Below, piece by piece: positions 6,201 to 46,442 of a stretch of DNA of 64,000 bases. The notes beneath the pieces were generated by a model. It did no database searches and had not been told where the DNA came from. It saw nothing but the letters and a program-made list of their open reading frames with translations. The number at the start of each line of letters is the position of its first letter. Positions within the stretch are counted from its first letter, which is position 1. Origin of the DNA: Takakia lepidozioides (Eukaryota > Plantae > Bryophyta); the NCBI GenBank assembly GCA_030704615.1, contig CM060733.1, forward strand, positions 23,374,001-23,438,000, written 5' to 3'. The translations under genes were made by a program, and so were the position numbers.

Positions 6201-6893
6201 GGAGCAGGCATCTCGCTCTGGCCCAGCTAGACTTCCTAGATGTTTAGCTCTTTGCACTCTCTCCTCTTCCCATGAATTCCTGGGTTATTTTTTCCCATGG
6301 TGTGAAGTGTGAACTCTTCACAACTGCCGGGATATTTTTGATAAATAGCGACTTATTATCCTCGAGTTACTTACTTCCTGTTCACACACGAGCTAGAAGA
6401 GTAGCACAGACAAGATGGAAAAAGTCAATCACCCTGTTCCCTGGGTTGGCGCGCAGCTTTAGCGCTTCTTTCCCTGTCGACCCCAAACCCTTTCTACTGA
6501 CAGGGTACTGGATGGGTCTCCTCTACAACTGTCCGTGTGACCCCACATGTTCACGGGTCGGTCTTTCCAACTTAGTCGCATAGTGTGAGAAGCTGGCTGT
6601 AATATCAACACGGAAAGAGGTCCTGAACAACGTTTTGCACAATGCAGTGTGAATCCCTCTTGTGACAGGCAATATCAACCATCAGTACAGAAATCTGGCT
6701 CCCGATCCCGCGACTCTATGGCTCCGCACATTTCAAACCTGCAGATAAAAGATGGCAGTTGTTGTCAGTGATTCGAAATTTGGGTTGCGATGGAATTGCC
6801 TTGCCTCTTCGTGGCGTAAACCAAATCTGGATAGAAAGAGATTGGCTTATTAGAGTCAGAATCCATTTGTGTGTGTTTCTGCTTCGTACATAC

Positions 6894-7825
6894 CAGTGTT
6901 GTGCGGGTTCTGCCTTTTTAAGGAACTCGCCGGGTCCGGGTTCGGGTTTTTTTTTCGGAGCCAAGTCCGGGTCCGGATCCGGGTTTTTGAAATTTGGAAA
7001 ATCCGGGTCCGGGTTCGGGTCCGGGTTTGTCAACACGGACTCGGGTTAGGGTCCGGGTAGTTGTTGGGAAATATTAGCGAGTTCACGGGTTCAGATCCGG
7101 GTCCGAATTTATTGATTAAATAAATTAGAAAAATAAGATTAATTAAGGATAAAAATCATTTTTGGCTGGAAAAAACATTAAATCCTAATAATGAATTTTA
7201 TTTTAAGAGAAATTCCTTCAAAATATACCATGAATATGAATATGTATACCACGAATAAGAATTTAAATAGAAGTTTGAGTTCCATTTTCTATTTTTCAGT
7301 ATCAATTCTTTAAACATGTTAAGAATAGTAATATGCCTCAAGGGAAGATCACTATAGCATGGATGTGTGGGATCTGGCATAATAATAATATATGACGCCT
7401 CCTTTGGGAGGTGTAAATTATGGTCCCAGAGGGCACAACTTTGTGACACCACTCCAGGGATTGAACCCACAACCCCTTTTGAGGTGGTATGTGGGCATTA
7501 CCACTGGGCTACAACGACTTGGGGCTGGCTGCTGCTGCCTATTACTGCTCGGCCCCTCCACACATATGACAAAACCTACCAGATCTAAGGTGGACCCGTA
7601 TGCCCCATCTAAATTTAAGACCCAGACCCTGACCCGCTACATTGGCCCACGGGTAACGGGTTTAACCGGTTCTGGATCCAGCACGCGGGTCCTGGTCCGG
7701 GTTCATTTTAGAATGAACCCGGGTCAGGGTCCGGGTTTTTTGTGATAGCACGGGTGCGGGTGCAGGTAACCCGGATCCTAACCCGCCGGGTACCCGCCTT
7801 CAAAACCCGGACCCGCACAACACTG
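6894..7825. mobile_element. Non-autonomous hAT-type MITE, copy 1
   Basis: TIRs CAGTGTTGTGCGGGT...ACCCGCACAACACTG. Exact 8-bp TSD GTACATAC (6886-6893 and 7826-7833). CCGGGT/CGGGTC subterminal repeats. Confidence 0.93.
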
Positions 7826-13357: not shown

Positions 13358-14214
13358 CCCAATCTCACGTCCCTTGGCTCCGTGGATGAAAACAATATTT
13401 CATCCCTCCATATGACGCTATATTCTTAGTGGTAGGCTCTTTATCCTACCCTTATCCATGCGATTATCCTTTCTTTCCAAGAAAATAAGAAACAAGGTAT
13501 TTGTTTGTTCTTCTTTTTTCACAATAACATTACTTTATTCAGGGCTCTTTGAGTCTGTAATAAGAGAGGCCAGGAAAAAAGAGCCTAGGTGGGGTTTGGT
13601 CTTTCTGTTCCTTGGAGTCAATGTGATGTTTTCAACGATGTTTCCACGTACTGTTTAGTTGTGGTCTTTTGAAATTTGCCAATTCCCAGTTAGTTCTGCT
13701 TGCGGAAAGTTTCTGTTTGGGAAAATTTTGAAGGTCAACGAAGGAGAGATGGTCACGTGGATCAACAACGCAAAAATATATCTACCTGCACAATCGAGTA
13801 TCATGTTTAGTGAAATCCAGTTTGTGTTAAGGAGGTGATGGAGTTGGGGCCTGTTAGAAGGGAAGAAAGGGCCAATAGAGATCAGACTACAGCTTCTACA
13901 CATTAACTTAGTACAAGCGCAGCCATGGAAGCTCACTTACAAAATTTATCAATTGAGAACCAGAATGAGGGGGTTAACCAGACATTGAGGGAAAGTTTTT
14001 GTTCTGCAACTTGATCCAGACAAAAGCGCACTGAAGTACACGCGCATGATTGACCAGCAAGACAGCAAGGAAGAAGAAAGAAGATTGAGGTACGGAACGG
14101 TAGGCTACATACTGCATACATCAGCTTTGAGAAAATGTCTTCAAGACAGCTTGCCAAAGGCACTGGACTACTACGGTTGGGCACTGCTGTTTTCCCAACA
14201 AGAAGCTCAGGTCC

Positions 14215-17200
14215 ATGGAGCTGGGCATGGGGACTATGCTCCCGCCGCAGCCACTCGAGGTTTGTAGGAGAGAGAGAGAGACAATCTCCAGGGGGTCCGA
14301 TCCAACTATGGAAGTGGTCACGATAGCCTTGTTGACGATGGCTTTCGTGGTGGGTTGGAGTGGTTGCCCAGGAGCCGACGCTCAAGCAATACTGGGACCC
14401 GATATCAGCCCTGAATCGAAGATCACTTTCAACCAGACTTTGAGTTCGGCGAATGAAACCTTCTATCTGGGATTTCGTGCGATTCCGACTGATGCAACAA
14501 CGAACTATCTCTGCGTATGGTATGCTGGGGTTACTGTTCATCCTGTGTGGATAGCGAACCGTGACAGGCCTGTCAAAGAGGGAGCCTCCCTCGAGCTTAC
14601 CAGCGATGGCGACCTAGTTTTGTCTGAATCTGATGGGACTGTTGTGTGGACTTCCAACACAAGCACATCTGGTGTCACAAGGGCCACCTTCTTGGAGACG
14701 GGTGACTTGGTGCTGCTAAACAGTAGTGGGAGCTGGGTGTGGCACAGCTACGCGTACCCAACCGACACCTTTTTGCCAGGAATGACTGTAAGTTTACTTT
14801 CACTAGACTTGGCTTTCAAGAACAGGCTTGATATTAATGTCCATCTGAAGCTCGAGAAACCAGCATCCAGGAACTTCCTCAGAGACAGATGTATACCATA
14901 ATTTGGACGGCATATTCTGTCTGATCAATGACAGTAACTTATTAAATGGTCACATCTGCATGTGGTCAAATGTTGAATTACCATTCCCTAGAGACTATGC
15001 AGTAAAGGTAGGTATAAATCTCGACTAGACATCTTCACAATTTGGACTTCAACTTGTACTCACAATTCTCAGGAATCACCCGATGGTTAAATATGGAAAC
15101 TCGTGAAGGAATGGATCCCGAGGTAGATGTCTGTACAGGGCTTCGAAGGGGGGGAACCATCATGGATTTTGTTCAAAATCTCGAATGGACATCTTCAAAT
15201 TTGGGCCTCCCTCAGGAATGTTCACTAAACATCGTCTTGTACCTCTACGTGAGTGATTAAATGCTTTGTAGTAAAACACACAATCCTGTACTGCTAACTT
15301 CTAATCTCGGGTTTTAACCTCGATTTTAACAAAGATGTGTGGTGCAGGCGCGTGCAGGAACCAAATGCGTCAGTTGGCGGGGATGGAATGACCCAGCAAC
15401 TGGCCCTTACGCACTTCAGATGCTAACAGACAACAGTGGGCAGCAGGTCTTGACTTGGAATCTGTCCGTCCCATACTTCTACAGCGGCCCCTGGACTGGC
15501 AGTGCATATGAAAATATTCCCGAGTTGGGCATAGTGTCGTATCCTGATAGGTACATCTTTGATAATAGCTCTGGCAGCCCTACCGTCTCGTGGACAACTG
15601 GTGGGATTCGATCGAGGTTTAACAATCTTAGCTTAAAACGGTTTACTGTGGACGCAGACGGAGTTGCCCGCCAGTATATCTGGGACATAGATCCAAGTTC
15701 CTGGCTTACGTATTTCCTTGTACCCAAGCACCCATGCCAAGTGTACCGGGTGTGTGGGCAGAACGGAGTTTGCAACACCGATGAAAGTTCCCTTGTTTGC
15801 AGCTGCCTTCAAGCTTTTGAACCGACCGATCCGAATCAGTGGAGAGAGAATCAGTTCTGGTCTCAAGGTTGTAAGCGGACACTCCCTCTGAATTGTAGTG
15901 ATTCAGCTCCAGACAATTCAACGACGGACAAATTTGTTGCCCTGAATCAGATTTCATATGAAGGGGATAACAATCTTCACTCTTTCATAGGCCAAAGTGA
16001 GACATGGTGTAGAAACAGATGCTTAGAAGACTGTGCCTGCACAGGGTACACTTTCCAGAATGATACCACCTCCAACAACTGCTCTGTGGACTCCAGCTCT
16101 GTTCTTTTTAATGGGCAAAATTCGTCCAGCTTCTCAGGATCGTTCTTCTTGAGAGTTTCGGCAGATTTTCAGAGTCAGGCAGTAAATAGTCCACCACGTC
16201 AAATGTTGGGCCGGCGGCACAAGAAATCTATTACCTTGGCTGCTGTTATTTCAATTGGTTTAGTCTCCGGCTCCCTGGTTCTGTCTCTTCTTCTCGCACT
16301 AGTTTGGTGGGCTGTCAGAAGACATAATTATGCAGCCGCCAACCAGAAATCCTTAGACTACATCACCGGCGCTCTTATACGATTCTCATATAAGGAGCTG
16401 AGAGTTGCAACAAACAATTTTAGCGAGCAGCTAGGAAAGGGAGGGTTTGGCACAGTGCACAAGGGAGTTCTGCTGGACAACAGCATTGTAGCAGTGAAGA
16501 AGCTGGTGAGGCTTAAACAGGGTGAGAAAGAATTTCGCACGGAGGTCGCCGTCATAGGTAAACTGGCAAGCTACCTGCATATTATGTACATGCAACTGTT
16601 ATATAGCTGATGTTTACCTATGTTGATCTGGTCTTCTGTCACTGCCTTTCTGTCACAGTTAGAGTGCAAACAGTAAAACTTGCCCAGCATGAATGTAGGG
16701 ATTATACTGCACAGTTGTGTTGTATATGGCAGGTTTAGTGCCTGAGATCGTGACCCCGCCATGACAGGTACTGTTCAGCACATCAACCTGGTGCGCCTGC
16801 GGGGGTTTTGCACTGATGGTGTCCACCGTGCTCTAGTCTTCGATTATATGCCTAAAGGCTCCCTCGAAAAATACTTGTTCACCAAGAAGGCTGGCACTGA
16901 AGGGCCGCAAAAATTCCTTGATTGGAAGACACGATTCAACATTGCCCTGGGAACAGCCCGCGGCATCGCATACTTACACGAAGAATGCAGGATCTCCATT
17001 CTCCACTGCGATATCAAGCCGGAGAACATCTTGCTGGAGGAGGACTTCACTGCAAAGGTTGCAGACTTTGGCTTAGCAAGGTTTATGGGAGAAGATGTAA
17101 GCAGGGTGATAACAAACATTCGAGGCACAATTGGGTACCTGGCCCCGGAGTGGCTTAGTAGTGCAACCCTGACATCAAAGGCCGATGTCTACAGCTATGG

Positions 17201-17579
17201 AATGACGCTACTAGAACTTATCAGTGGACGAAGGACCATCGAGCTCTCTCTCCCTTCCGACAAATGGTTTGTTGCAGTATGGGCATTCCATCAGATGACG
17301 AATGGGGACTTTCGAAGCCTCACAGACGAGAATCTGCACATTGAGGATGTTGATCAGGAGCAGCTGGAAAGGGCAGTGCGGGTGGCTTTGTGGTGTGTGC
17401 AGGAGCAACCTGATCAGAGACCAACGATGGGGAGTGTGGTGAAGATGCTGGAGGGCAACGTTGTTGTGAGCGATCCCCCTGTTCCCGTATCGTTGGAAGA
17501 GGCCGAAGGTGAACGCAGATACCAAGACTTCTCTGAGCTGATGACCAGCAGAACCCAATCTCGAGGCTCATCTCTCTAG
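14215..17579 (+). CDS. G-type lectin S-domain receptor-like Ser/Thr kinase (SD2-like), copy A
   Basis: Exons 14215(or 14308)-14787, 15348-16557, 16768-17579. Signal peptide, B-lectin (VWIANRDRPV, YPTDTFLPG), SLG/EGF (CQVYRVCGQNGVC), PAN (CRNRCLEDCAC), TM, and kinase motifs GKGGFG, AVKKL, HCDIKPEN, DFG, GYLAPE. Confidence 0.95.
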
Positions 17580-18224
17580 GCGGTAGCGTTGCTAGCCTGA
17601 GGATCAACTTCAGCTATGACTGACTCAAACCCTAGGATTGACCCCTACTAGTAGGGGCTGGGACCACACGATTGTGGTCTGAATTTTGGACAAGAGAAAG
17701 GTGAAAAAAAAAAGGGGGTGCTGGGATCAAATTCAGGTAATCCATCAAAATCCAATAAATAAATAAAACTACGGTAACCTGTGCCGTTGGCCCAAGTGTC
17801 CAGTGTCATTTAATTAAGCCCAAGTCCAAGTAAGTCTCTTATGTAGAGGCCGAAGTGCGAACTTTGAAATTCGTGTTAGTTGTATTTCATCATTTTTTTT
17901 CCAAAGAGCCTATGACCAGATTTGAGCCGAGACCTTTCACTTTATATCTCTCTTTATATTCTCTCATGTCGAGGCTCCCACCAGTGTCCCAGGAATGCCC
18001 ACTTTCCTATTTTTCGGGAATTTCCAGCAACCTAAAGTACTTGAAATTCAACATCTCACACACCGCATGTCCGAAAATCATGAGACCAAGTTGGTGCACC
18101 CCTCCCCATGGCGGGCTTTCCAACGTTACCAAGCACCAAGGCTGGGGACCCACGGTTTGGGACATCTCAAATCTACAAAACACAAAACAAAACAAACGTC
18201 TGGATTCATATATTGATATCACTA

Positions 18225-18395: not shown

Positions 18396-21300
18396 AATAA
18401 TGATTACTATTGTTGTAAAGTAGTTGCCCCAGATCTATACAGAATTTCTCCTATACCTGACCGAGATCCTATAAATATTGGGTAGAATTCCGTGATCAGC
18501 GACTACAGCTCTCATCCCAGGTCAAATATGTAGAATATGAAATTCTTGATTGGAAAATTCTTGTATGGGAAATCCCATTTTAACAAAGAGAAAATGTCAT
18601 GAGGTCTTCGTTTAAGAGGTACCGCCCTCCCAAAGGTAGTTGCAAGATTTGGTTTCAAGCTTTCACATTTTGCCCTAGACGCTTGGTGGAATTTTCGGCC
18701 AGTGCTTTACGTAAGAACATGAGAGTGGGCCACATATCATCTTCAAAATTATCCTTTATCCACCTCAAACAGTAAATTAAACTATAAATTAAACTAAATT
18801 AACAATATCCAACTTACTCCTCAATCCGTGCTAAGAATCTGTGCTACTTATTTATCAAAGTACTAGGACAGAAATGCATCAGGTATTTGTTTGTTTGTTC
18901 GCATGAGAGTTCGTAACCGGTTGCAGAAATGGATGTATCTCTACACCAACTGGCTATTATAGAAGTAACAACGATAATAACTTTCATAACTATGATGGGC
19001 ATGATGATATCACTTACACTGGGTATGATCCATTCGAGTTAATGAGTCTAATATGGCTACGAACCCATTGAATGTTAACAAACTACTTGTCATCTTACAT
19101 TTATCACCTATGGGTCATATTGCGATCCATTCCTTGTTGGTGCTTGGTCCAGACAATGAAGTAGAGAATTACTCTCATGTCATGGTTTTAGTCACTCATG
19201 GTTAATTAGAAATATTCTTTTTTAAATAATCATTTCTAGATAATTAGGACAATATACATTTATATTTATATTTGGTTCCATGTGCCAAGTGAAGTGGCAA
19301 ATCTCACTAAGGATGTGGAGAGGCTTATTTTCACATGAGGCTTATGAAGGCTCGTCTTCTTCTAGCTACTCTCACCGCCATAGCTCTAGTTCTTGAGTGG
19401 TGAAGTGTGCAGGAAGTGTGTGAGGTACTTTGTATGGTGGATTGGGGGTGGATTTTTTTTAGCAAAGATGTCATTGGCTTGAATTGTATCGAGTGATAGA
19501 GTGAGGTTACACTTGGAAGAGTTGGGTTTGCTCCTTAGCCTATGGTGGTTTTATGTTTGAAGGTTCTCTACTGCATTCCGCTTCTGTCATTCCCTCTATT
19601 TCATTTATTAGTGTGGCACAGCTTTCTAGGACGGTATGCTAGCAAGTGTAGTTGGACAACAATGCACATTGTGGCACAATGCTTAGATGCACGACACTTT
19701 TAGGATTTCGTAGAGAAATAAAGCTTGAGTTCTAAAGGCAAACAACTAAGGGTAATCTTTCCTTGAGGCATCTAAACCTAGATAATGTAGAAAAAAAAAT
19801 TGGACCTATCATCGACAAGAACAGTCATAGTTATATTCACAACAATGATCGTTCATAGCTAGAATTGAGCCGTTGTGGATGATAGTGCATCAAAGGTGTG
19901 TGTCTCATCTTCACGTCAGATTCCAGTTGGGATGAAAAGAGACATTGTTTGTGAGGAGCGAGGTAGGAAGATATACTAGGCGACCTATTCCGAATAGACA
20001 AGAGCAGCAACGCCGGAAAGCAATGTCTAAAGCCCTATGGGTATTAAGTGTAGACAAAGACCTAGCTGAGGAATAGACAGTGAAGGTGAGGATTTCTGGG
20101 AAATTAGAGTTGCTTTGCAACGTCGTGCAAGCTTTCCTGTGAGCTTGTCTGACTCCATCAACCACTTGAGTGGCTGGTGATCCGAGACAAGGGTGAATGG
20201 ATTGCCGTATAGATAGTACCTGAAGTGTGCCACGGCCCACACTGCAGCTAAGCATTCTCCCTCATATGAGCTATATTTAGCCTCTGCAGTGTTGTTCGAG
20301 CGGCTAGTATAAGCCACTACGAACTCTCTTCCCTCATTATCCACTTGTGTGAGCACCGCTCCAAGCCCCAGCATGCTCCAATCTGTATGTAGCTGAAAAA
20401 AACGCCCCCTGATAGGTCGTCTCAAGATGGGCGCCGAGGTCAACCTCACCTTGAGCTCTTGGAAAGCTCGTTCTTGCTCATCTTCCCATTGCCACTCTTG
20501 GTCCACCTTGGTCAGCTTGGTTAGAGCCTTTGCAATGGCACTAAATCCCTTGATAAACCGTCTATAACAGTTTGCCAAACCCATGAAAGCTCGAACTCGG
20601 CTCACATCTGTGGGGCGTGGAATTTGTGCAATGGCCTCTATCTTAGTCTGTTGTACCCCAATCCGCCAAGATATATCATGTGACCCAGATACTCAATCTG
20701 GTTGTGGAAAAACTTGCACTTCCCCGGATGTAACTTCAATCCGTGCGCCCTCAAGCGCTCAAATACCACGTGAAGGTGTCTCTCATGCTCCTCCACCGTA
20801 GCACTAAAGATGATGATGTCATCTATGTAGCACCGAACAAACTTCACCCCTGCTAGAATCCTGTCCATGACTCTCTGAAACTCTGCAGGAGCGTTCTTAA
20901 GCCCAAATGGTAAGAACGGCCACTGATATAGGCAATCCTTCCCGTGCTCATTGATCCCCCAGAATGTTGTCTTCTGCTTATCGGCCTCCTTGATCGGTAA
21001 CTGGTGATATCCGGATCGTAAATCCAAAGTGCTAAAAACCTTGGCATGCCCAATGGCATCAACGATCTCCTCTGGTGTTGGCATGGCATACCTATCGGAC
21101 TTGGTTTGACGATTTACAGGCCGGTAATCACCGCACATACTTCTCTCCGTCCAATTGCCATAGATATCCTTCTTGGCTGGCATCACTGTGGCTAAAACAT
21201 ACTCTCCACCAGATAGCTCCACCAAACCAGCCTCCCAAAGGTCTTGAGTCATCATCTGAATCAAGGTCCTCTCCATGTCACTGTATCTATAGGGTCTCCG

Positions 21301-21824
21301 AAAGATTGGCGTGTCAGTGGCCAATTCAATGCGAATCTCTTGACCCTTCAGTGCTCCCAAGTTCTGCAAAGCAGTTCCTGTAAGCCCTCAAGAACTGCCG
21401 TATATGTTGTCTCTCTCCTTCGGTGACTATGGGTCCAACATCAGGCTCTCAGTTGTCCTCCGTGATTGCAACCTTGAGTCCAGCAGGCTTAGAGGTAGAA
21501 GACGCATCCCGTGGTTGCTATGCTGCAACCTCTTGAGTAGTAACCACTCCATGCTCTGTCAGTGACAATGCCTCATCCTGCCCCATCATCTCATCCTTGA
21601 GGACCTTCTCAACCCGAGAAAAATCCCCAACCTCATCCATCACCGCCGCCTTGGCTGCAAACTCCCTCTGAACCTCAAGCACCTCCCACGTGTGCCATGG
21701 ATACGGCCTGCACCTTGTGGTCCTCACCTGTTCACCCCCACTCGCTGCTTGTACTGTCTCAGTAGGCAGAGAGACTATCAAGGGAAGTGTACTCCATATT
21801 CTGCGCTGCTCAGCCATAGCCCAG

Positions 21825-22770
21825 CTGATAATCCAGGTCAAGCAATTGAGATCCATTGCTTGCCCCAACACCTGACGACGTGATGCCTCAGAAAGAGATG
21901 GCACCGCCGTAGTACCAGTGGTAAAACCCATCGGCCACTCGCACTCGTCAGCATTGGCTCCACTAACTGCTGCAACTGGCTAACCCACAAGAGGCCAGGT
22001 CCACCATCCCAGAAAGCATGAGATCCTGGAAAGCTCAGCAGTGTAGGCAATGTTGCTCGTGGGTGACCCACCTTATTGACCACTGCCAAAGGTGACCGGT
22101 CATCGTGTCTCACACGGTGAAACTGCCTCCCTATGTCCAAAATGCTATCCACCGTCAAGTTTGGTGGCCGCTGCACCCCATCAAATGCACGCTTGAGCAG
22201 TGCAAGTGGCATCAAGTTGGTCCACCATAGTCGTGGGTGATGAGCCCGTGACCCCACTGCAGCTGCATCCAGCAACACTGCTGACCCAAGCTAAGACTGC
22301 ACTTGATGTACATTGGCCATCACCTTGGCCCGAGAATCACCCATCAATGGCACATTCTCCAAGATATATGCCAGAGAGTCTGTCTGCTGAAGCTGTAAAT
22401 AGCGCAGGACCCTCAATATCTCCCAAAACAGACGTGACCTTGAGTCATGTAACCCATTGCCATGCCCCGCTGATGAATGCCCTTGGCAGGGCCAAACTGC
22501 CACTACCAAGTGAATAGGGCCAAACCGCTCCAAATCCTGCGCCCCCAGCAAAGAGATGTCTGCTGGCAAGGCTTGCTGGTATCCACGAACTGCAGACACT
22601 GGCAACAAATCAGGGTACTACTGAACCAACTGAGCAATATGGCGCAGTGAGATGCGTCGTGCAGTCTCATCCATCTCCACATACAGGTAACGTCGAACTC
22701 GTATACCTGTCTGCAGCACTACAGCCAATCTAGTGCTGATCCCGCCAAACAAGTCCAGAAGGCATATGCC
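21825..22770 (-). pseudogene. DNMT3-like C5 cytosine DNA methyltransferase domain inside the Gypsy pol polyprotein, disrupted by stops
   Basis: In the protease reading frame: motif I ICLLDLFGGIS (22770-22738), II RYLYVEMDE, IV GPIHLVVAVWPCQ, V GLHDSRSRLFWEILRVL, VI ILENV, VIII DAAAVGSRAHHPRLWWTNL. After a 1-nt frameshift, IX-X ECEWPMGFTTGTT..SRRQVLGQAM. Confidence 0.9.
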
Positions 22771-23975
22771 TTCATCCGGGCACTGCTACACAAGAGGTGT
22801 GGTGTCCAATGGCGATAACTGAGGTGGTCCTGGTGCAATCACCGCACTCTCATCTTCTTTTGACGGTACAAAGGCCTCTATTCAGGCTTGTTGCACATGT
22901 CTATCAGCAGCCTGCTGCAAATCCTTGCTCGTACCACACAATGGAGTGTGAGCAACCATGACAGACAACTCCGCCGTACCATGCATGTCATCCTGCTCTG
23001 CTGGAGGTGGTACATCCTCTGCATGGGCATTGCCCTCCAGCAATTCTCCAGGCCGACTAACTGCAGCTGTAAAGGCTGCTAGTATTGGCATCTTGCCCCG
23101 CTGGGCAGCAGCAACACCCCCAATGAATGTCACAGGGACGTGTACACGACGACCATCCACTGACTGCCATCCAGGCCTGTAGGATGCTGACTCCTCCCAA
23201 AAATCCAGGGTGAAGCCCATGGAATACAACACTGCCCCACCAACGAGGACATCGTAAGAGACCGCGTCTATCACAATGGCCTTGGCTTGCTTCACTGAGC
23301 CATCTATAGGATGATCCAACTGTAGTCTAATGGCCAACTCAAGCCGTGTCATGTCCCGAGCCTGCTCTGATCCTCTCAGAGATGTCTGTATCTGGAAGGG
23401 ACAAGGCTCCATATCCGCCTCCATGAGGCCCAAACCTGCAATAGCGGCTCTGCCCAATATCAGTGGCTGAGCTCTCGAGTCCAAAGACCCGCAGTGGCCG
23501 GTACCTCTTGCCTGTCGGTCCACTCAAAGAGAAAACGTCATCATGGTTGTCTAACAAGACAACTCCAGGTGTCACCATGGCACGCTCAAAGGCTGGCCTA
23601 GCTGGCAGCTCCGTCAACCTGGCAGCTGCAGCTTGCCATGGCGCAGCCGTGGCAGTCTTGACCCTCAAATCCGAGGATCCCTCTGCCACTACACCTTCCA
23701 CTAACTCCGCAGAAGATGAAGTGACCTCCTCACTCTCACAAAGTGTTGCTGCTAGTCTGAACACTGCAGCTGGTCTTACCCCCGGCATCGCAATCATGGT
23801 TGCCGAGAACAGTGGGGCCTGACATACAGAGATGGCCGCCCCCAACAACACACTGGCTGCACTAGCCTTGACAGTAGGTGTCAGTGTTGCACGTGTAGCT
23901 CTTCCCAATGGCACAATAACGGCCTCTGTTTCCGTATCCGTCGGGCGAGAACTAGATGCTATGGATGTTGTTGAT

Positions 23976-24725
23976 GGGCAGTTGCAGGATTGGGTGGATC
24001 AAAAGTGACACATGTTGAGTCCACTGGAAATCCATGGATTTATTTTATTTTTTTGAGTCTATTGCTCTCAGTTTATTTTTTAAGGATAGATAGTAGTATA
24101 CATAACATTTTTAGTAAAGAGTCTCTCCTCAAATATTGAAACCATTCTTTACTAGATATTTTAATCTTTAATTTGAAAAAACATTTAGACGTCAAAATCT
24201 AGAGTTTATAACCACTTGTCCATATACCACCTAGCACCTCTAGATTATAGGTTTGTATGTCTTTTTAGTAAAAGACGACACCTCAAAAACCCAAAACATA
24301 AGATATTATGGACTAGAGCAAATCAACCTGTTTTTATGTGCAAAATAGTCTATAACTCTCAATTCCTAAGATAACTAGTCCATATAAAAGTGGATTTGGG
24401 TTGGATTTAAAAATGGCACCCCTAGTGTGTTTTCTTTTATGCCAGTGTATGAGTGTACATAATGTTTTTTCAATCCATAAGATTTTATGTATAACATCTG
24501 CACTCCACAGTAATCAACTTTAAAAGTCCATGGTTCTCTGGTACATGATTGTTTTGGCAATCTAACAATTGGTACACATACCCATTGTAGTTAGAAACCC
24601 TATACCATATAAATTTAGATGAAATATTGAGTTGTTCGACAAATATGGGTAAAACCATGGAGGGAGGTCACTGCAGAAACGGCCATGTTACACAAAAACT
24701 GAGACACCCAATCCTGCAAATACCC
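23976..24725. mobile_element. ~750-bp AT-rich MITE inserted in the Gypsy gag-protease linker
   Basis: Imperfect TIRs GGGCAGTTGCAGGATTGGGTG / CACCCAATCCTGCAAATACCC. Flanks TGAT/TGAC. Removing it rejoins the host peptide ETGSTTS. Confidence 0.75.
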
Positions 24726-27700
24726 TGACCCTGTCTCCGCCAAGATGAATGATTGAGGCAACCTAGCCTGACGGCTTGCCTCCCCATGTTGTGGATCCAA
24801 CTCCACCTCTGCACCTCGTGGCTCAGGAACTCGTGCTGCTCCTCGAGTGACGGCTGCAGCAAACTTCACCTGCACTAGTGGTAGTGCTGCCCCACACATA
24901 AATCCCATGCCTCCCATGTCTCCTCCGTCAGGATGACGCTGCTGAGGAGGAACAAGAAGTGGACCCTCAGGTCTTAGAGCTGGTACCACCTGAGCTGTGG
25001 CCATGGCAGCAACCCTTTGCTCTAGATGTTGAAGCCGGTTGGGCATGCCTTGGTCAACGCCTTGATCTCCACGTCCTTGGCCATATTGTGCTTGCCCTCG
25101 TCCTACACCTCGTGCCTGACCACCTCGTCCTCTCTGAGGTGCTCTACCTCGCCCTCGGCCACCATTGTTCCCTTGGAACTGGGCTCGCCGCAACTCACGG
25201 TGCAAGTCATAACACTGGGCATCTCCATCCCCATACTTGCCACCATGCCCACACTGCAACTGTGCAGGCTGTGTTTGTGCCGGCCCTTTGCCACTCTCTG
25301 GGCAATCTTTCTTGACATGGGGTCCTCCACATATTCAACATACCACCCCTGGTTGTTGTTGGTCTGCAAAAGATGCCATTGGCCTCTACACTTGAGGTCC
25401 CCTGTAAACTCCATGGAATTTGGGTTGGGCAACCTTGCCCCCCCTAACCACGCTATTGGGCAGTCCCTTTGTGCCTGTTGGCTAGCAGCTGCGCCTCGTG
25501 CAGGCATGTCCTTACCAAATCGAATGGTAACAACTCGCTCCTCCACCATGTTGAGCTCAATCTAGTAGAAACACATCTGCTAATATGGGTTGGGCCGCTT
25601 ATAACAGGGTTGCATCCCGCACCCTTCTCCTGAGCTCCTTGTCCAAAATTCCATACCAGAACTGGATTGCCTGAGCTTCAGTAACCCCTTGGGTCACACT
25701 TATCAAGCGTCTCATACGAGTGTAGGCCTCTCGCAAGCTCTCACTGGATTTGCGCTGGAAGTCTTCGCAGCTTCTCTGTCCGTACGCCTTGGTAGTTCCT
25801 CCACAACTCCTGGAAGAACTCCACCACCGGGTTGAATATAGGCACATGTGTTGTAGTTGTGGCAGGAGGAGTAGTAACACCTTTTGAACTGGTACCACCT
25901 GCAGAAGTACCGGCACTACTTGTTCCACTACTAGTGTTGGCAGTGGGAGATATTGGTGCTGATGCAGCTACTGGTCGCGTCGTGCCTCCAGTAACGGAGA
26001 CGTAGTCAGGTGACCAGTACATCCTCCACTCCTCAATCTCTGCTTCATGTCCTCGCCTGAACTCGTGGAAATCATCCATAGGCGGGCCTTCCAAATGCTG
26101 GAACAGTCCCTTCCACGCCATGAATGGGGTGAACAGCTGTGGATTGCGCATCTGCTGCAAATCACACCAGATGTCGAACTCCTGGATAAAGTCATCCAAC
26201 TCGATTGTGCCCACAGCTCTAGAGTACCTACGAGGCCCCTTGGTAGCTCCATACATCTCCTCCATGTCATCCCACAACAATGGCGAAGGAAACTGCACAC
26301 TTGTTGATGAAGCCTCCGAGTCTGTGTCAGACTCTACACTAGTTGAGGGTGGAGGTGAAGGTGGTCTGAACCGAACACCTCGTCTTGTGAACCCACTCTC
26401 ACTGCTACTGCCCGTAGCCGTATTCCCCTCAAAACCTTTGGGTAACTCCGTGATGACACTCACAACCCGCACCTCCCCCACGTGACACTATAAGGCTCTA
26501 GTACTAATTCTAATAGTGACACGGGTGAGCACCTGTTGCGGATTAAGGGTCATATCCTAGTGGCTAAGGGCACATGCACCTGCATCCACCGCAAGAACTC
26601 ATATGGTTGGCTGGTCATCAACCCAGCCTCACCATAGAAGAAACACTGGTGGTCTTGTTGGTCATCACTCCAGCCTCACCACCGACAGCATACTCTAGGA
26701 TTGACCGGTGATCAAATCCAGCCTAATCCCTATGACAGCAAACGCCCACACAAAACCAACATGGCGCACAATCAAGCATGCAGGTGTGGGGGGGATCCAA
26801 ACACAAGAAACCAAAACATCAACACCCCCACATCAAAATCCCTCCGCAGTGTTGCTCCTACAGAATACCCCAGTCCAAAAACCCCGGACTGACTGGCCTC
26901 CATCAAGAGAAGCTTTGGCAACTACAAGTACAAAGTAATGAAAATAGTAAAGAGAGAGAGGGAAAGAATAGAGGCCCGACCAAGCAAGATCTAATCCTGA
27001 TCTATGTTATCAACTGCCAGACTTCTCTCAAAGTGCCTCGCTCTGCATGATGGTAAGGTGTGGGAGGTATATCTATGTCCAGAAACGTGCCACTAACCTT
27101 ATCCCAAGCTACAGTAGTTCGCTCTAACCAACCCTCCTCCTCTCTCTGCCAGGTAAAGACAAAGCAATACTCCCCTATCTCCCGCTCCCTGAATACTAAA
27201 GAAAATAGAAGTAGGGTCTGACAGTTCTCAACTCGAAAGCTTTGAGACGGTTGCGGGTGTCCTTGTTGCGAATGACTGCATCTCCTTTAAGCAAAACAAA
27301 TTGTTCGTTGCTAATGAACCCCCATTCATGGTTGACTCGTGCAGAGCGTGTCCGGCTGCAACCACGTCTGATTGCAAAAACTTGTGCAGCTCTTCCTTCT
27401 CTGCTCCAGTTCACCACGGCCTTGTGGCTGAACACCTTGGTCCCCGGGGCTGTCTTTGGCTGTGTTCCAAGCCTAGCTTCCACCCACTTTGGTATTTCAC
27501 CTACAGCTGCAGAACTGCTTGCTCCAACAGAGTTCTGACTGTCCAAAGCAATATTGAGGCCATCAACGCCAACTACAGCAGTTTGTTGTCTATTGCTAAT
27601 GCCTGACTCCCAGTATGCAATCAACTCGTCCAACTGTTATCCACTCAAATCAGTCTGAGTTCCTTGAGAAACATAAATTTTGTCTCCTTGTGTGCACAGG

Positions 27701-29360
27701 CTAAGAGAAGAGACATGCCCTTCAATTACGTCATCATTGTCCTCAGCCATACAAGTAGGACATCCACAGACTTGTCTCTCATGTAGACCACAACAGGTTC
27801 TAGAAACAGAATTGTGGATCTTTCATAGCACACTCACACTCAAAAAATTCCATAGATTTTTAGCAGAGTCCAAAAAACTAAAACCAAGTCTGAATATGTA
27901 GATTTCCACAATCTGTAGGTCCTCGCGCAAATTTGAGGTCAAACAACCTTTGTATGACCAAGTTATGGCAAAAACAGGCTCTGTATAATTTAAATTGGAT
28001 CAAAACAAAGCTCCAAATGTATTTCAATAAATACAAGTATTTTTGGCGTACCCTACATGTTTCATGCGAATACCCGTAATTCCGAGGACGGATCTCTACA
28101 TGTGCAGGAGCTTTAAAACTGGGAGTCGGGGGATTTGCTACTGGTCGGTGCAGGAATGAAAACTTCGCAGTCTGGTGCCAAGCGCCATGAATACCACTCC
28201 AAACAGCGATGGCCTAATGTCCAAGATCTTGCATGTGTAGAAGAACCGAATAGGGAAGCATTGACAAGTGTGAGTGCCAACCGCTTGTGCATGAGCCCTG
28301 CTGAGGATATCAATTGTGCTTCTCCAGCAAGAGATGAGCCGGCCTACTACCATTCAGGCACTTTTATTTCTGAAGATGTAAACCTCGGCAGCAAATCTGC
28401 CCCTAATTTGAGCAGCTTCAATGCCATGGCTACGTCAGATCTGAATCAGACCCGTGCCCTCTTTGATCAGCACTTCTCCTGGCACATGTGTATTTGTGAC
28501 AAACCAGCCTCACACTCTAATCACGTCGACAGTATCCTCATGTGACGTGGGCTGGTCCTCCACCATTCAATCCCTTCAACTTCATGTTCAACCTTGGCAG
28601 TGAACATTCAATCAAAACGACAAATTGCCAACAGGCTCGTCTATTTCTCTTTTCATCGCAAGGTCAACATGACGCCACTTTGAACTTAAGCCACACTTCT
28701 CTCTTCACACGTGATTGGATTCAAGCATCAGTCCCACCTCGAATAACACCCAAGTCGATCTCTGATCATGAGTGTTTACAGGCTGAATTCATATCCACTG
28801 TCCATAAGAAAACACGTTAGACTCCACCGATCGCTGCCCTTCCATTCACAACCTTGCTGGGCATACCCTGTGTTCATCACACTCCATGAGACCTGATTTC
28901 AGCCATGTAATCAGTCGCTCCAGCCCTATTGTTTTGATGCCTTCTCCCATGCGGTCATCATGCTTAAAAATCACATTTCAGCCAGCCAGTTAATTGAACA
29001 CGTTCTCCCACATTCAAGTTGTTGATGGTTAAAACCTGATGTCACAGTTGGGCTTAAACTTAGGCTGAAACAGACCCAGCAAATGCACTGCTTCATGGCA
29101 GGCCTAATCGCCAGCTTACTGCATCTGCCCAAGCATATCAGCTCTCTTAAATCTAAAAACAAAAATCCAGCACCTCCTTCCTTGCCACAGGCTTGGTGTT
29201 CAACCAGCCCATCAGCTCATGCCGAAATGCTCCCGGCCTTAGGCCCAACTCCATTGAAGAATCATGGATGGTGTACCTGGTAGCTCATCCCACCCATTTC
29301 CTTGCACCCACGCAAATCAACAGCCAAAGGTGACCGACCATTTTCAGGCTCTTATGCAGG

Positions 29361-29533
29361 CAAACCTGACATCCTCACTTCAGCATATTACGGCCACTTA
29401 CAAGCTGGGCCCATTTGATAGATCGCTTGTTGTGATGCCTTTGCTCCATGTGCATGGTCTAATGGCTGGACTATTTTCATCACTCTACTGGGGGACAACC
29501 AGTCTTCCATCGCTGGACGATTCTCAGCTTCAA
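29361..29533 (+). pseudogene. Fragment of an AAE3-like (oxalate-CoA ligase) acyl-activating enzyme exon
   Basis: After a CAG acceptor: ANLTSSLQHITATYKLGPFDRSLVVMPLLHVHGLMAGLFSSL (PLxHVHG motif). Frameshifted and cut by an LTR-like sequence. Confidence 0.7.
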
Positions 29534-29928
29534 TGTCCGATCAACCCAAAATAAACACTACAACGGCAGCCGCTTCAAATTAACCAGTGCTTAACTAAAA
29601 ACTCACATCTCGCACTAATGATGCAATGTCATCTCTCTCGAGTGAAAAGATGCACAAAACCAAACCAACATTTCACTCATAAAATAAGAATCAAGCCCAC
29701 TGCACCCCCAAGGCTTTGGGGAATCAACAGTACACGGCGCCATAGCCGACGCGGGAGGCTCAACTCGAGAGAGATGAGCCTCGCGCGTTCGCCGTGAAGA
29801 TAAGCCACGCCCATGGGCCAACAAATATCTTGACCCCTGGTTTGACACTTGGATCAAGCCCAAGTGTCATATATAAAAACTAGTTATTTATTGGCTAGTT
29901 TCACACTACTAGTAAAATTTACTTGACA
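29534..29928. mobile_element. Solo-LTR-like sequence, related to 56386-56715
   Basis: TGTC...TGACA termini. Shares AGGCTCAACTCGAGA.AGATGAGCCTC..GCCGTGAAGATAA with 56548-56597. No TSD seen. Confidence 0.55.
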
Positions 29929-37695: not shown

Positions 37696-39377
37696 GGGTC
37701 CGGGTCCGGTTCCGGGTTCATTTACCCGGGTCAGGGTCCGGGTTTTTTGTGATAGCACGGGTCCCGGTGCGGGTCCGGATAACCCGGATCCTAACCCGTC
37801 GGGTACCCGCCTTCAAAACCCGGACCTGCACAACATGTCCAGAACCCGTTAAACCCGCTACCTGCGGGCCAATGTAGCGGGCCAGGGTCTTAATTTTAGA
37901 TGTAGGGCCCACCCCCGAAAGGGGCCAGTAGCCGCCAGGCGAAGTGGCTCTTAGTTACGCCCACTTCGGCTGGGAGTCTTCTCTCTCTCTCTTTAGATGG
38001 GGCATGCGGGGTCCACCTTAGATCTGGTAGGTTTTGTTGTACCATAGTAGGAAGGCTGATCCGGCAGTGAAGTGCCGAATATTTATTTTCTTTACAACAA
38101 AACACTTCCGCACAACTTAAGGAAATTTCTAGATTTTACGGCAATGCCACGATGAGATTTTAAGTAATTCGGGGGTGACTCCCTGCATGAACTTGCTCTA
38201 TCTATTGTACCATTATGTACCAACATTCAGTAGCTTAGATGGTTAAGTGCACTGAGTGCCACCCAGATGATTCTGGGGTCAAATCTTGCTACTGACGGGT
38301 GGTATGTGGTTCCTGGGCGGTGTCCCACTTATTTGCCTCCATGGCGCATAAATGAAAGAGGTTATTTTCTCCTCTCACTACTAAGGGGCCAAATTTGTGA
38401 GCTGGCGCTCCCAGGTGTTTCCCATTTTTTTTTTTTAAAACAAAAAAAACAAAACAAAAATTTATGTGGGTTGTTAAGAGCCATGAGAATGCACTGATTA
38501 TTCAGCCAATTATTCTAGGATTTCTCAGAGCTAAGGAAAATATTTTCCTAGAGCTTTATGCCTTGAAACATGCATTTGGAGATTTGATATTTGGAGTTTG
38601 TTTGAGATTTTAGGCATTTTTTTGTAAAGTTTCTGGAATTTTGGCAGTTTTTCCTAAATTTTCACTTAATTATTAGGCAGATTCATTTCTAGTTATTTAG
38701 TGCCGGATCAGCCTTCCCAACTACCGTATGTGTGGAGGGGACGAGCAGCTATAGGCCACTGCAGCAGCCAGCCCCACCACGTTGTGGGCCAATGGTAATG
38801 ACCTCAAAAGCGGTTGTTGGTTCAATCCACGGAGTGCTGTCACAAAGTTGTGCCCTATGGGACCATAATTTACACCTCTCAAAGAGGCGTCATATATTAT
38901 TATTAGGCCAGATCCCACACATCCATGCTATAGTGATTTACCCTTGAGGCATATTACTATTCTTAACATGTTTAAAGAATTGATATTGAAAAATAGAAAA
39001 TGGAACTCAAACTTCTATTTTAATTCTTATTCGTGGTATACATATCCATATTCATGGTATATTTTGAAGGAATGTCTCTTAGAAAAAAATTCATTATTAG
39101 GATTTAAAGTTTTTTCCAGCCAAAAATAATTTTATCCCTAATTAATCTTATTTTTATAATTTATTTAATCAATTAATTAGGACCTGGATCCGAACCCGTG
39201 AACCCGCTAATATTTCCGGACCCTAACCCGAGTCCGTGTTGACAAACCCGGACCCGAACCCAGACCCGAATTTTCCAAATTTCAAAAACGCGGATCCGGA
39301 CCCGGATTTGGCTCCGAAAAAAAACCCGCACCCGGACCTGGCGGGTTCCTTGAAAAGGCAGAACCCGCACAACACTG
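37696..39377. mobile_element. hAT MITE copy 2, rearranged and interrupted
   Basis: 38720-39377 is the reverse complement of copy 1's left part and ends in TIR ACCCGCACAACACTG. 37840-38030 continues it. 37696-37836 is the other terminus in flipped orientation. Confidence 0.8.
38228..38460 (+). mobile_element. tRNA-derived SINE
   Basis: A-box TAGCTTAGATGGTTAAG, B-box GGGTCAAATC, shared body, A-rich tail. Confidence 0.65.
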
Positions 39378-41376
39378 TGCATTTGTGGCGTGAGGGTAAG
39401 GTTGTGTCTGCCACACGTCAGCAAAAATGACCTGGGGGTAGTTTGATGGGATTGCCAATGGGGGAGGCGAGTGTTGGAGGCCGTTGGAGGTTACCGTTGC
39501 AAGGTTGTTTGGTGTACCCCCAGTGGAGATGCTCTAAGGGTTTAATTTTGTCCCTTCAAATAATTCTGAAATAAAGTTCTCAGAGCCACTCTCCCCTCTT
39601 CTGTTTTTTTTTTAAGAAAAAAAACAAGCCTCAAACGGCAATTGGCTCTCTTGCTTTGCTTTGGCACAACATAAGAGGAAGGTAAGACGGGAGAGCACGA
39701 CTCAGCACAACACACCAATCAGCGCTTGACACGGTGTAAGGGACTTTGACCACATTTTCTACATGGACTTGCATGTCTCCGCAAAGTCTTTCTCTACAAG
39801 AGAGCCAACAAAGGGAGACAATAGGAATAATGTAAGAAACTAATGGACACTGCGATCTGATGGTACTTGCGGCGGATTCCTGAATCCCAATGGGTTTCAA
39901 CTTGCAGTGTTGTATTTTGACAGGTCCCTACCTTTTTTTTGTGACAGATTTTTTTTTAAAAAAAAAAAACTCTCACTATGACTGTGACAGACAACTTTGA
40001 GAAAATGCCTTTCACATGACATGTTGACAGATTTTTGACCTTTCACACTATTTTGTCATATGAAATTAAAATGAAAAATGAAAAGAAGTGTGAACTTCTT
40101 GCAACTACAATTAGTGACGCTCCAATCCGTGAATACATATGGTATTGTCTTTACTATTTTCATGGGTTCCAACGTTCCGGCCCAAACATGTAGCATTCGT
40201 ACCACTTTTTCTCTAACTGTAGGACTTTAGCATTTTTAACCTCTTCATCTGAAGTCCCAAGCCTCTCTTCTTTGAGAGATATTTTCTTGGCTTATCAATG
40301 AGCTGCCAGATGATTGTAAGTTTGTAAGTAAAGATTTAGTTTTCCCATATCATCTTCGTTTTTTAGACTCCTACTCCCCCCCCCCCCCTTGCAAGGTGTT
40401 CCCTTTCGACACGCTTTTACGGCCTTCTTGGAGGTTATTTTTTCCTCCATCTGTTCTGCTTTATACGTACATTTTTTAATAAAGTACCCAGGGCCACTAT
40501 CCACTGTTCTCTTTAAATGTTTTTAAAAAAAATCATGCAGGATGGCCGCGTCGAATTAGGTGCAGTTGTTTGAATATGGCACCTCCTCCACAACAAATGC
40601 TTTTGAAATAGGATCATGAGATGGACTCAAGAAGATTTTTTTTGGCACTGCTGTGGCTGCGGGTACCCCTCTAAGGGAGAACAAGTCAAACAGGCACTAC
40701 ATGTTTTGAACTAGCAATTCATTTTGGCCGCCAGACTCCAATACTTAATTGTGCATTTTACAAGGGTGTATCGAGAGTGAAGATCCTAAACGGGAAAGCA
40801 AGTGCATGCCCACATTATCCAAAATGGATTCGAGCCAAATATCCGTCTACGCAACACCCTTGTCAAAAAAAAAAGAAAAAAAAATTAAGAATGGAGGCTA
40901 GAGCACGCATAGGAAACAAAGAGGGAGAGCCTACTTAGAGGTTTAAGGCTTGAAACACAAAAAAGAAGGGCTGGCAGTGCCTCGGTGAGGCTCCCCTAGG
41001 TGGAACTCGTTAGATTAACAATAACTAATAACAATTTTTACCTTTTTTAGCCTCTCCTAGGTGGACTTAGTAATAAAATTACCCCTAATTATCAGAAATT
41101 TCTGCCTTTCTTTTGACAGGCTATTTTTGTTTTTGACTTTCACTGTTACAGGCATTTTTTTCTCGTTGCCTTTCTTTTGACAGGCTCATTTTTTTTTTCC
41201 TTTTTTTGCCTGTCAAATGCCTTGTGACAGGTGCAAAAATCAGCCTTGGTTTCAAGCTGCGGTGGGTAGTGTGATGGTAAGGTGATTGCATTGAACTTGC
41301 ATGGGTAGATGGTCAACTGGAAGCGGCAGCAGAGTGGCACAATTGATAAAATCAGGTTGAGGTTCCAGGTTGAATT

Positions 41377-42103
41377 CAGTGTTGTGCGGGTCCGGGTTTT
41401 GAAGGCTGGTACCCGGCAGGTTAGGATCCGGGTTACCCGCACCCGCACCCGGGCTATCACGAAAAAACCCGGATCCTGACCCCAGTTCATATTAGAAATG
41501 AACCCCCAACCGGACCCGGAACCGCTTGCTGGGTCCAGAACCCCTTAAACCCGCTACCCATGGGCCTATGTAGCGGGTCAGGGGTCCGGGTCTTAATTTT
41601 AGATGGGCCATGCAGGGTCCACCTTAGATCTGGTAGGTTTTATCATATGTGTGGAGGGGACGAGCAGCAATAGGCCACTGCAGCCAACCCCACCACGCCC
41701 ACCACGTTGTGGCCCAGTGGTAATGGTAAAGAATTGATATTGAAAAAAGAAAATGGAACTCAAACTTCTATTTTAATTCTTGTGTTAAATGAGCAATACA
41801 TATTCATGGTATATTTTGAAGGAATGTCTCTTAAAATAAAATTCATTGTTAGGATTTAAAGTTTTTTCCAGCCAAAAATAATTTTATCCCTAATTAATCT
41901 TATTTATTTAATTTATTTAATCAATTAATTAGGACCCGGATCCGAGCCCGTGAACCCGCTAACATTTCCCAACAACTACCCGGACCCAAACCCGGACCCG
42001 GATTTTCCAAATTTCAAGAACCCGGATCCGGACCCGGACTTGGCTCCAAAAAAATACCCGGACCCGGCGGGTTCCTTAAAAAGGCAGAACCCGCACAACA
42101 CTG
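41377..42103. mobile_element. hAT MITE copy 3 (reverse orientation, internal deletion)
   Basis: TIRs CAGTGTTGTGCGGGT...ACCCGCACAACACTG. Exact 8-bp TSD GTTGAATT (41369-41376 and 42104-42111). Confidence 0.93.
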
Positions 42104-42486
42104 GTTGAATTCCTCATGGAAGGCTCTTGTAGTGTAACCCGGGTATTAGTATTCTAATCTTTGTAACCCCCCTCGTCTCTCATGTAACTCTAGATAGTCC
42201 ATTTTTATATACTTAGCCACAGTCAAATTTCGTGACCAAGTGTGGGTTACACCGACTGGAGTTACACTCCATCTGGTGTAACCGAGTGGAGTTGCAGATG
42301 TCATCGTGTAACCCAATGTAACCCCAAGTGGAGTTACACATGTCGTCATGTAACCTAGTGTAACCCCAGCTGGAGTTTACACTCCTTCAGTTCCATGTCA
42401 CTCTCAATAGAGGGTGGGGAAGATTTGACATGCCGAAAACCGGCGTACCATCCTGTCAGAGGTTGCACGTGTGAATTAAGTTCTTA

Positions 42487-42523: not shown

Positions 42524-42881
42524 AGTTTTTGAGAGAAAGGGGACTGAGGCCCTGCTCGAACTTTATTCCTAAGTTATTATCGTCCGCCAACAAACAAACA
42601 AACAAACAAGAAAACAAAAAAAGTAAAAACAAATAGGGACCAGCGAGACCCTGACAGTGAAGGAGAAGTTTTGTTCTGCAATTTGATCCAAACAAAAGCG
42701 CACTGAAGTAAGTTGATGGAAGAGTGCACACACACACATTGACCAGCAAGACAGCGAGGAAGAAGAAAGACAGTTGAGGTACGGTAGGCTACATACTGCA
42801 TACATCAGCTTGAAGACAGCTTGCCAAAGGCACTGGCTACGGTTGGGCGCTGCTGTTTTCCCAACAGAGGAAGCTCAGTCC

Positions 42882-45800: not shown

Positions 45801-46442
45801 TTCACCAAGAAGGCTGGCACTGAAGCGCCGCAAAAATTCCTTGATTGGAAGACACGATTCAACATTGCCCTGGGAACAGCCAGCGGCATCGCATACTTAC
45901 ACGAAGAATGCAGGATCTCCATTCTCCACTGCGATATCAAGCCGGAGAACATCTTGCTGGAGGAGGACTTCACTGCAAAGGTTGCAGACTTTGGCTTAGC
46001 AAGGTTTATGGGAGAAGATGTAAGCAGGGTGATAACAAACATTCGAGGCACAATTGGGTACCTGGCCCCGGAGTGGCTTAGTAGTGCAACCCTGACATCA
46101 AAGGCCGATGTCTACAGCTATGGAATGACGCTACTAGAACTTATCAGTGGACGAAGGACCATCGAGCTCTCTCTCCCTTCCGACAAATGGTTTGTTGCAG
46201 TATGGGCATTCCATCAGATGACGAATGGGGACTTTCGAAGCCTCACAGACGAGAATCTGCACACTGAGGATGTTGATCAGGAGCAGCTGGAACGGGCAGT
46301 GCGGGTGGCTTTGTGGTGTGTGCAGGAGCAACCTGATCAGAGACCAACGATGGGGAGTGTGGTGAAGATGCTGGAGGGCAACGTTGTTGTGAGCGATCCC
46401 CCTGTTCCCGTATCGTGGGAAGGGGCCGAAGGTGATCTCTGA
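42882..46442 (+). CDS. G-type lectin S-domain receptor-like kinase, copy B (paralogue of 14215-17579, shortened C-terminal tail)
   Basis: Exons 42882-43455, 44274-45480, 45691-46442. Same domain order and intact kinase motifs. A ~17-nt deletion after the kinase gives an early stop (EGAEGDL*). Confidence 0.93.

Follow-up and report, generated by a model that had tools for sequence, protein, structure and literature searches.

A DNMT3-type methyltransferase ahead of a family-conserved stop codon in a Ty3/Gypsy retrotransposon family of bryophytes

The window, a 64,000-nucleotide stretch of Takakia lepidozioides contig CM060733.1 (positions 23,374,001 to 23,438,000), carries on its minus strand a decayed retroelement in which Gag, protease (PR), methyltransferase (MTase), reverse transcriptase (RT) and RNase H (RH) can be traced from 26265 to 20123. 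The element sits between two plus-strand copies of a G-type lectin S-receptor-like kinase gene (13978-17768 and 42650-46661), about 90-95% identical and 29 kb apart. In a tree of 25 of the 120 listed matches, none of them from a liverwort or hornwort, the S-domain receptor kinase next to the element groups as sister to sequences of Physcomitrium and Pohlia (SH-aLRT 98); this single gene points to a bryophyte host, and there most likely to a moss. Minus-strand ORF remnants at 53417-55178 resemble, by eye, a LINE endonuclease and ORF1 region. Repeats of 200-900 bp are dispersed in both orientations (6892-7825, 37701-39377 and 41294-42105) and probably represent a small DNA transposon.

The focal element begins with TGTC at 29928, at the outer end of a 5′ terminal repeat, A (29673-29928), which is 75% identical to the A repeat of a second copy at 56715-56469. 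A long 5′ leader follows (26266-29672). Depth is at family level at least to 27500, where the depth table ended, and the segment 27500-29670 may be leader or an unrelated insert. None of six leader ORFs (27.2-29.6 kb) has a Pfam match or a match among the collected family loci or proteins; a short plus-strand frame within the leader (29258-29554), likewise with no Pfam match, resembles an acyl-CoA synthetase fragment by eye. Gag (24727-26265) is decayed but recognisable by zinc-knuckle remnants and by 59% and 42% identity to residues 1-484 of the Marchantia protein P0004. Within Gag lies an AT-rich insertion of 755 bp (23972-24726; GC 0.32) that is specific to the focal copy: depth falls across it and contigs of three runs join 23971 to 24726/24727. 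A related piece is found by blastn at 51297-51537. The aspartic protease (23122-23530) aligns with the LDSG region of P0004 and the Asp_protease_2 region of P0062, and its catalytic motif is frameshifted near 23484. The MTase occupies 21827-22782 and, on profile, structure and motif comparisons, retains motifs I to X in canonical order, with the catalytic PC (Cys codon 22488-22486) and ENV at 22359. An open tail of about 100 codons (21521-21826), partly conserved with Marchantia, Calypogeia and Sphagnum proteins, leads to a TAG at 21520-21518 followed by CAA CCA (21512-21520 in all). Behind it the RT region (20641-21511; RVT_1, E 6e-33) remains in frame until an 11-nt deletion near 21365. RNase H (20123-20692) ends where the element is truncated at 20123, with loose contig ends at 20123/20124. 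The integrase (IN), the PHD finger and the 3′ repeats have been lost beyond this point.

The four ORFs of the initial annotation are located stop-to-stop at 23523-22882, 22617-22291, 22290-21838 and 21979-21518. As it had proposed, the protease frame continues into the MTase: motifs I-VIII are in frame with the protease region when stops are written as X, and motifs IX-X follow a one-base frameshift near 21955. Decay stops are present at 22884, 22788, 22620 and 22293 in the PR-MTase frame, the last two within the MTase, and at 21451 past the junction with RT. Frameshifts interrupt both the protease catalytic motif and the MTase, and motifs I, IV and VIII carry non-conservative changes. With these lesions, the 755-bp insert and the truncation at 20123, the focal copy is dead and non-functional.

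Two further minus-strand copies (56.2-64 kb) supply the integrase, PHD finger and 3′ end that the focal copy lacks. Copy 2 (57240-60140; 90% identical, with many indels) comprises RT, RH, IN and PHD and is interrupted by an N gap. Its 3′ end (56206-56916) consists of a repeat B1 (56916-56720) that ends in GACA and is preceded by a G-rich tract, a 5-nt spacer, a repeat A2 that starts with TGTC at 56715, and a repeat B2 (56387-56206). The third copy (60647-64000), with RT, RH, IN, PHD and B, is 92% identical to the focal copy and 94% identical to copy 2, of which it may be an assembly duplicate. A gap of 500 N (60146-60645) separates these two indel-rich RT-RH-IN-PHD copies, which may be a single locus that error-prone reads led to be assembled in duplicate. 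Integrase follows RNase H in copies 2 and 3, as it does in the metagenome loci L077, L059 and L049. Taken with Gag, PR, RT and RH in the focal copy, the order is Gag-PR-RT-RH-IN, the Ty3/Gypsy domain order.

Sequence comparison confirmed the focal MTase as a DNMT3-type, unpermuted C5-methyltransferase located between protease and RT. The PF00145 search suggested by the initial annotation returned a match on a 108-residue piece (E 6e-10, score 39) and on the read-through translation with X at stops (E 1e-8, score 35), the cut-off being 22 bits. All 29 PDB matches at E<=1e-3 are DNMT3A, DNMT3B or DNMT3C. A profile built from 21 sequences matches DNMT3A/B/C at E 1e-19 to 1e-24, DRM2 at 1e-8 to 1e-10 and M.HhaI at 5e-9. 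The structure predicted for P0007, a relative with an uninterrupted frame, superposes on DNMT3A with a TM score of 0.82 over the target. The assignment as Ty3/Gypsy, DNMT3-like and unpermuted thus holds on domain order, structure matches and motif order. A DRM-type circular permutation was rejected by the motif order. Prokaryotic or phage origin was rejected as well, phage and plasmid Dcm enzymes reaching at best 25-30% identity against far stronger DNMT3 scores.

The MTase is confirmed, at the level of sequence, as a trait of the family and not a one-off insertion, because four observations agree. Firstly, in the public DNA run X1 summed contig depth is 352k-686k over the MTase bins, 514k-991k over PR and RT, and 70 over a flank contig; the MTase is therefore of the same order as PR and RT and thousands-fold above the flank, with the proviso that summed contig depth is not copy number and that runs X1 and X2 are one sample, which may be the source of the window DNA. 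Secondly, in run X7 (organism B) a single contig spans PR-MTase-RT-RH (window 20123-23076) with 254 differences in 2954 bases (about 91% identity). Thirdly, a protein search returned 29 longer homologues with 33-74% identity, mostly from Marchantia, Calypogeia and Sphagnum. Fourthly, 80 metagenome loci carry the MTase at the same position. The family-wide module that had been predicted is thus found, in metagenome loci as in named bryophytes. The organism B contig is as close to the window element as the window copies are to each other; a close relative, contamination and horizontal transfer are candidate readings. A tree of the metagenome loci L001-L079 is star-like, and its three tiers of end branches (about 0.06, 0.035 and 0.015) suggest three bursts of a Sphagnum-like family.

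Marchantia encodes several uninterrupted Gag-PR-DNMT3 proteins of 1278-1281 residues; two full-length ORFs of this kind (P0321 and P0322, Mp_Vg00370 and Mp_Vg00540) lie on the V sex chromosome. At E<=1e-30 the wider family comprises 153 clusters, with Klebsormidium KFL_013780020, Closterium and Scenedesmus among them. No named vascular-plant relative was found, 30 unnamed or representative proteins having been looked up, and none of 18 pattern matches on viral contigs encodes a relative. In the MTase tree, from which near-duplicate Marchantia rows had been removed, the window sequence groups with those of other bryophytes (SH-aLRT 99); the elements whose MTase follows RNase H and precedes integrase make up a clade of their own (96). 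The K. nitens protein (P0144) is weakly placed and is not sister to the window sequence in this tree, which holds no host DNMT3 outgroup. The RT tree recovers the same three groups. Unnamed relatives and the Scenedesmus “pol” in many cases combine the common MTase family with a PHD finger. The MTase lies between RNase H and integrase in chlorophyte-type relatives; in Closterium and two ENA relatives PR, MTase and RT share a single open frame with no stop at the junction. Judged from these arrangements, the MTase module has been relocated within the polyprotein at least once. A large, undescribed-looking algal-type set (P0029, P0041, P0045, P0050, P0313 and P0032) has the order RT-RH-DNMT3-IN-PHD, one member with a chromodomain.

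Between the window, locus L004 and the large metagenome family, MTase dN is 0.23-0.29 and dS is 1.7-3.1 (NG86, near saturation). These divergences indicate that the MTase is under purifying selection between lineages. Within the large family, dN/dS is 0.57 (median) for the MTase, 0.57 for PR, 0.42 for Gag and 0.34 for RT-RH. The value of 0.57 is inflated because the copies have decayed, as expected for dead copies; only a single copy among 42 lacks interruptions between motif I and the junction. Decay is of deamination type and strongest at CHG (0.25) and CG (0.22). Among 65 distinct copies the catalytic Pro is kept in 61 and the Cys in 63, FGG is kept in 61-62 of 63, and the motif VIII arginines vary mostly through CpG-type changes. 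ENV served as the fetch pattern for the metagenome loci and its conservation is partly circular; that of PC is not. The initial annotation had named a missing PF00145 match, absence of the segment from relatives and loss of the catalytic motifs as grounds against its reading; PF00145 matches, relatives share the segment and the catalytic Cys is conserved across copies.

The initial annotation had placed the MTase inside pol, followed by RT, and had taken every stop as decay. RT and RNase H do follow, but the TAG at 21520-21518 had been passed over, and this stop is of a different kind. For its analysis, 81 mapped sequences were reduced to 65 distinct copies at 98.5%, of which 42 cover the junction with context and 23 do not. 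These 42 belong to the large metagenome family and are not the window host's own copies; the window and L004 are too diverged to map and were read directly. At the junction codon TAG occurs in 28 copies, TAA in 13, TAC in one and a glutamine codon (CAG or CAA) in none. A stop is therefore present in 41 of 42, and in every other one of the 495 codon columns the share of stops is at most 27%. CAACCC directly follows in 38 of 42 copies; the window and L004 read TAG CAA CCA. A stop followed by CAA-CC[A/C] is thus found in three diverged lineages, between which synonymous sites are near saturation (pS 0.67-0.87). These are all the independent lineages seen at the DNA level, Marchantia being known from proteins. 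In L003, L004 and L005 the frame past the stop remains open across RT as far as the contig ends. Protein ends agree: the Marchantia proteins of 1278-1281 residues and one from Calypogeia end 98-100 residues after motif X, those of an unnamed ENA group end right after motif X, and P0144 with two related clusters ends 27 residues after it. An active TAA lineage was considered and rejected, since the TAA variants occur at scattered places in the star-like tree and the mean decay at CTA sites is 15%, with a maximum of 39%. We conclude from the sequences that the TAG is family-conserved and is not decay, given the stop in 41 of 42 copies, the 27% of the next column and the conserved context. It follows from the same evidence that, as read from sequence, ORF1 is Gag-PR-DNMT3 and ends at the conserved stop, with RT-RH-IN-PHD behind it in the same frame; the MTase closes the Gag-PR ORF and is not part of pol. 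We give practically no weight to the reading that a host DNMT3 retrocopy was captured just once, or that all stops are decay within one Gag-Pol ORF. The window copy does hold several decay stops of the same type, but 80 loci and named bryophytes agree in the position of the MTase, neither introns nor a TSD surround it, and 41 of 42 copies have a stop at the junction, none the sense codon CAG; for the loci examined this reading is refuted.

How RT-RH-IN-PHD is expressed from behind the stop was then considered. Stop-codon readthrough is known from TMV and SIRE1. CARYYA has been described as a readthrough signal (PMC3441728); the window context CAACCA fits it, and the CAACCC of the large family is one base off, which counts against readthrough. 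No conserved RNA structure was found 3′ of the stop in 9 copies (z from -2.3 to +2.4). The sequence context nevertheless points to RT-RH-IN-PHD being made, probably, by readthrough at TAG-CAA-CC[A/C]. It is unlikely that the same ORF1 is instead accompanied by RT-RH-IN translated from a spliced mRNA, in the manner of Ogre (with the AG of the stop as acceptor or an intron spanning it), or by reinitiation; in either case the MTase would still be co-expressed with Gag. The TAG is itself a YAG, AGGTT is conserved 8-12 nt upstream of the stop in all three lineages, and Ogre splices between GAG-PROT and RT (PMC6317226). The TAA copies, being scattered decay, are compatible with the AG of the stop as acceptor. 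Four annotated gene models (P0008, P0012, P0017 and P0030) splice MTase to RT, although each at a different junction. No downstream acceptor is common to the three lineages, the window having none before +93, and a CAG 5 nt upstream in the window would compete as acceptor. Coding conservation is flush on both sides of the stop with no spacer, whereas the Ogre spacer averages 274 bp. As for reinitiation, 41 of the 43 large-family copies have an in-frame ATG directly after CAACCC, but the window and L004 lack it. The conserved 3′ CAA-CC is what readthrough predicts, and it argues against both alternatives. By readthrough, splicing or reinitiation alike, the unspliced RNA makes Gag-PR-DNMT3, so that MTase amounts would match those of capsid, with RT scarce. 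Bulk MTase expression is not required in every relative, as the single frame of Closterium and the two ENA relatives and the position after RNase H in the chlorophyte type indicate.

The element has TGTC...ACA ends, and an exact 4-bp TSD is present in 7 of the 9 loci in which both final ends are available (L007 was left out as truncated). Two complete direct LTRs flanking the coding region are absent; split repeats are found in their place. Four loci with TSDs have the form A-coding-B, L034 and L077 have A-coding-B-x-A-B, L007, L012 and window copy 2 have the latter in part, and L056 has one rearranged end form. The spacer x measures 2 nt (GC or AT), giving the palindrome GACA-NN-TGTC; in window copy 2 it is 5 nt long. 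Among the rows listed, all 6 internal B copies have a G-rich tract ahead of B1, and no TGG was found after the A repeat; the A2-B2 joints are variable. An unrelated neighbouring element (L030:14546-15198) has the same B-x-A-B ends with a GACA-GT-TGTC junction, and the layout is thus wider than the DNMT3-Gypsy family. Opening a circle with one or two repeats at x would yield both end forms by circular permutation, and the layout therefore suggests that integration proceeds through the circle junction. A one-repeat circle would give A-coding-B and a two-repeat circle A-coding-B-x-A-B. The A-coding-B form could also arise by recombination between B1 and B2 or by assembly collapse. For retroviruses this route was rejected, according to the accessible text of PMC11054761.

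An enzyme that is fused to Gag next to the protease ends up in the particle, where the cDNA of LTR elements is made. On the model that we somewhat favour as a whole, ORF1 ends at the conserved TAG and its Gag-PR-DNMT3 product would assemble the particle, within which the protease presumably frees the MTase; rare readthrough would supply RT and integrase-PHD. With RT behind a leaky stop, the MTase would be at Gag stoichiometry. The packaged MTase, whose activity is predicted from sequence, would then methylate the element's own new cDNA before or during integration, and the cDNA is, by a modest preference, our candidate substrate. The most likely benefit would be that the new copy enters a CG/CHG/CHH-methylated genome already marked like heterochromatin and escapes recognition as unmethylated foreign DNA.

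Two other roles for the MTase were weighed. With the integrase PHD as its guide, it might target the chromatin into which the element inserts or, in trans, host or family copies; new copies would then be silenced and the spread of the element itself limited. The C-terminal PHD of the integrase and the heavy deamination of copies at CG and CHG would suit such a role, which is discussed in PMC5890265. However, the MTase is in ORF1 and unfused to integrase, host MET1, CMT and DNMT3 explain the decay spectrum, and the family is very abundant in its host; we regard this role as quite unlikely. A non-catalytic or RNA-related function in the particle (nucleic-acid binding, a scaffold, or a decoy for host methylation factors) seems very improbable. 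The position of the MTase does differ among relatives, and motif IV is WPC or WEC in the distant ones. KnitGypsy-Dnmt3 from Klebsormidium nitens, the only tested member of this Gypsy group, did not methylate in yeast, a result termed “inconclusive” by its authors (PMC5890265). Yet the SAM-binding FGG, catalytic PC and motif X are kept across bryophyte lineages despite saturated synonymous sites, and the related SymbioDIRS-Dnmt3 enzymes methylate CG de novo (PMC5890265). Methylation of the cDNA inside the particle remains our preferred reading. In its widest form, the proposal would be a green-lineage-wide Gypsy clade, expanding in bryophytes, in which a leaky stop loads DNMT3, the cDNA is pre-methylated and integration proceeds by cutting the GACA-NN-TGTC circle junction. 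This combination is doubtful; if true, it would place a DDE integrase on a route once proposed, then rejected, for retroviruses.

Our verdict is that the family is a land-plant variant of an algal (Klebsormidium) kind of element already known. Like the window family, KnitGypsy-Dnmt3 is a Gypsy element that carries an intronless, unpermuted DNMT3 under purifying selection and has A-coding-B-A-B repeats in a DIRS-like layout (PMC5890265), and the CCHC-PR-DNMT order of KFL_013780020 (P0144) is that of the window family. The kinship that had been proposed finds support in architecture and repeat layout. The two differ in host, algal against land-plant, and in ORF layout: according to the accessible text of PMC5890265 the DNMT belongs to the Pol ORF, but in bryophytes it is followed by a conserved stop. 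Since P0144 and two related clusters end 27 residues after motif X, the ORF split may hold in Klebsormidium too. SymbioDIRS-Dnmt3 and SymbioLINE-Dnmt (PMC5890265) and EpiLTRs (bioRxiv 10.64898/2026.05.21.726589) also encode a C5-MTase, but in other hosts and on a tyrosine-recombinase or LINE chassis, or with a DNMT4-like MTase at the 3′ end of pol. Elements of the Scenedesmus type differ in carrying the MTase between RNase H and integrase. REM1 is a PHD-bearing green-algal Gypsy element. Gypsy-7a_cRei likewise has a PHD finger in its polyprotein, but its LTRs are ordinary and its figure legend names no MTase (bioRxiv 10.1101/2022.06.16.496473). Ogre/Tat two-ORF elements share an expression break after the protease; as described in the accessible text of PMC6317226 they have an intron-like non-coding spacer and no MTase, where the bryophyte family has a single in-frame stop. 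Elements with CARYYA readthrough (PMC3441728) share the stop and its context with the window, but here a DNA methyltransferase is on the high-expression side. The host enzymes PpDNMT3 and MpDNMT3b, compared by description, have the same catalytic family and motif order but are single loci with their own N-terminal domain (PMC6453930, bioRxiv 10.1101/2021.02.12.428880). In the literature searched, from which subscription journals were largely missing, we found no description of bryophyte members, of the conserved stop or of the circle model, in keeping with the initial statement that no land-plant family was known. The readable supplementary files of PMC5890265, the main supplement not among them, do not mention Marchantia or Sphagnum. 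Papers after PMC5890265 refer only to “streptophytes” as hosts, and one review describes methylase-encoding transposons as absent from “land plants, such as tracheophytes” (PMC6338049).

With its split ends, the family may escape LTR finders; the LTR-FINDER-based REXdb collection (PMC6317226, accessible text) would be expected to miss elements that lack two LTRs. The uninterrupted Gag-PR-DNMT3 ORFs of Marchantia are annotated as hypothetical genes, and counts of DNMT genes in bryophyte genomes can be too high where family ORFs are included. Given the conserved stop, MTase would be expected in large excess over RT, which favours action inside the particle. As Marchantia is a genetic model with methyltransferase mutants and carries uninterrupted ORFs of this family, what such retrotransposon DNMTs do becomes testable.
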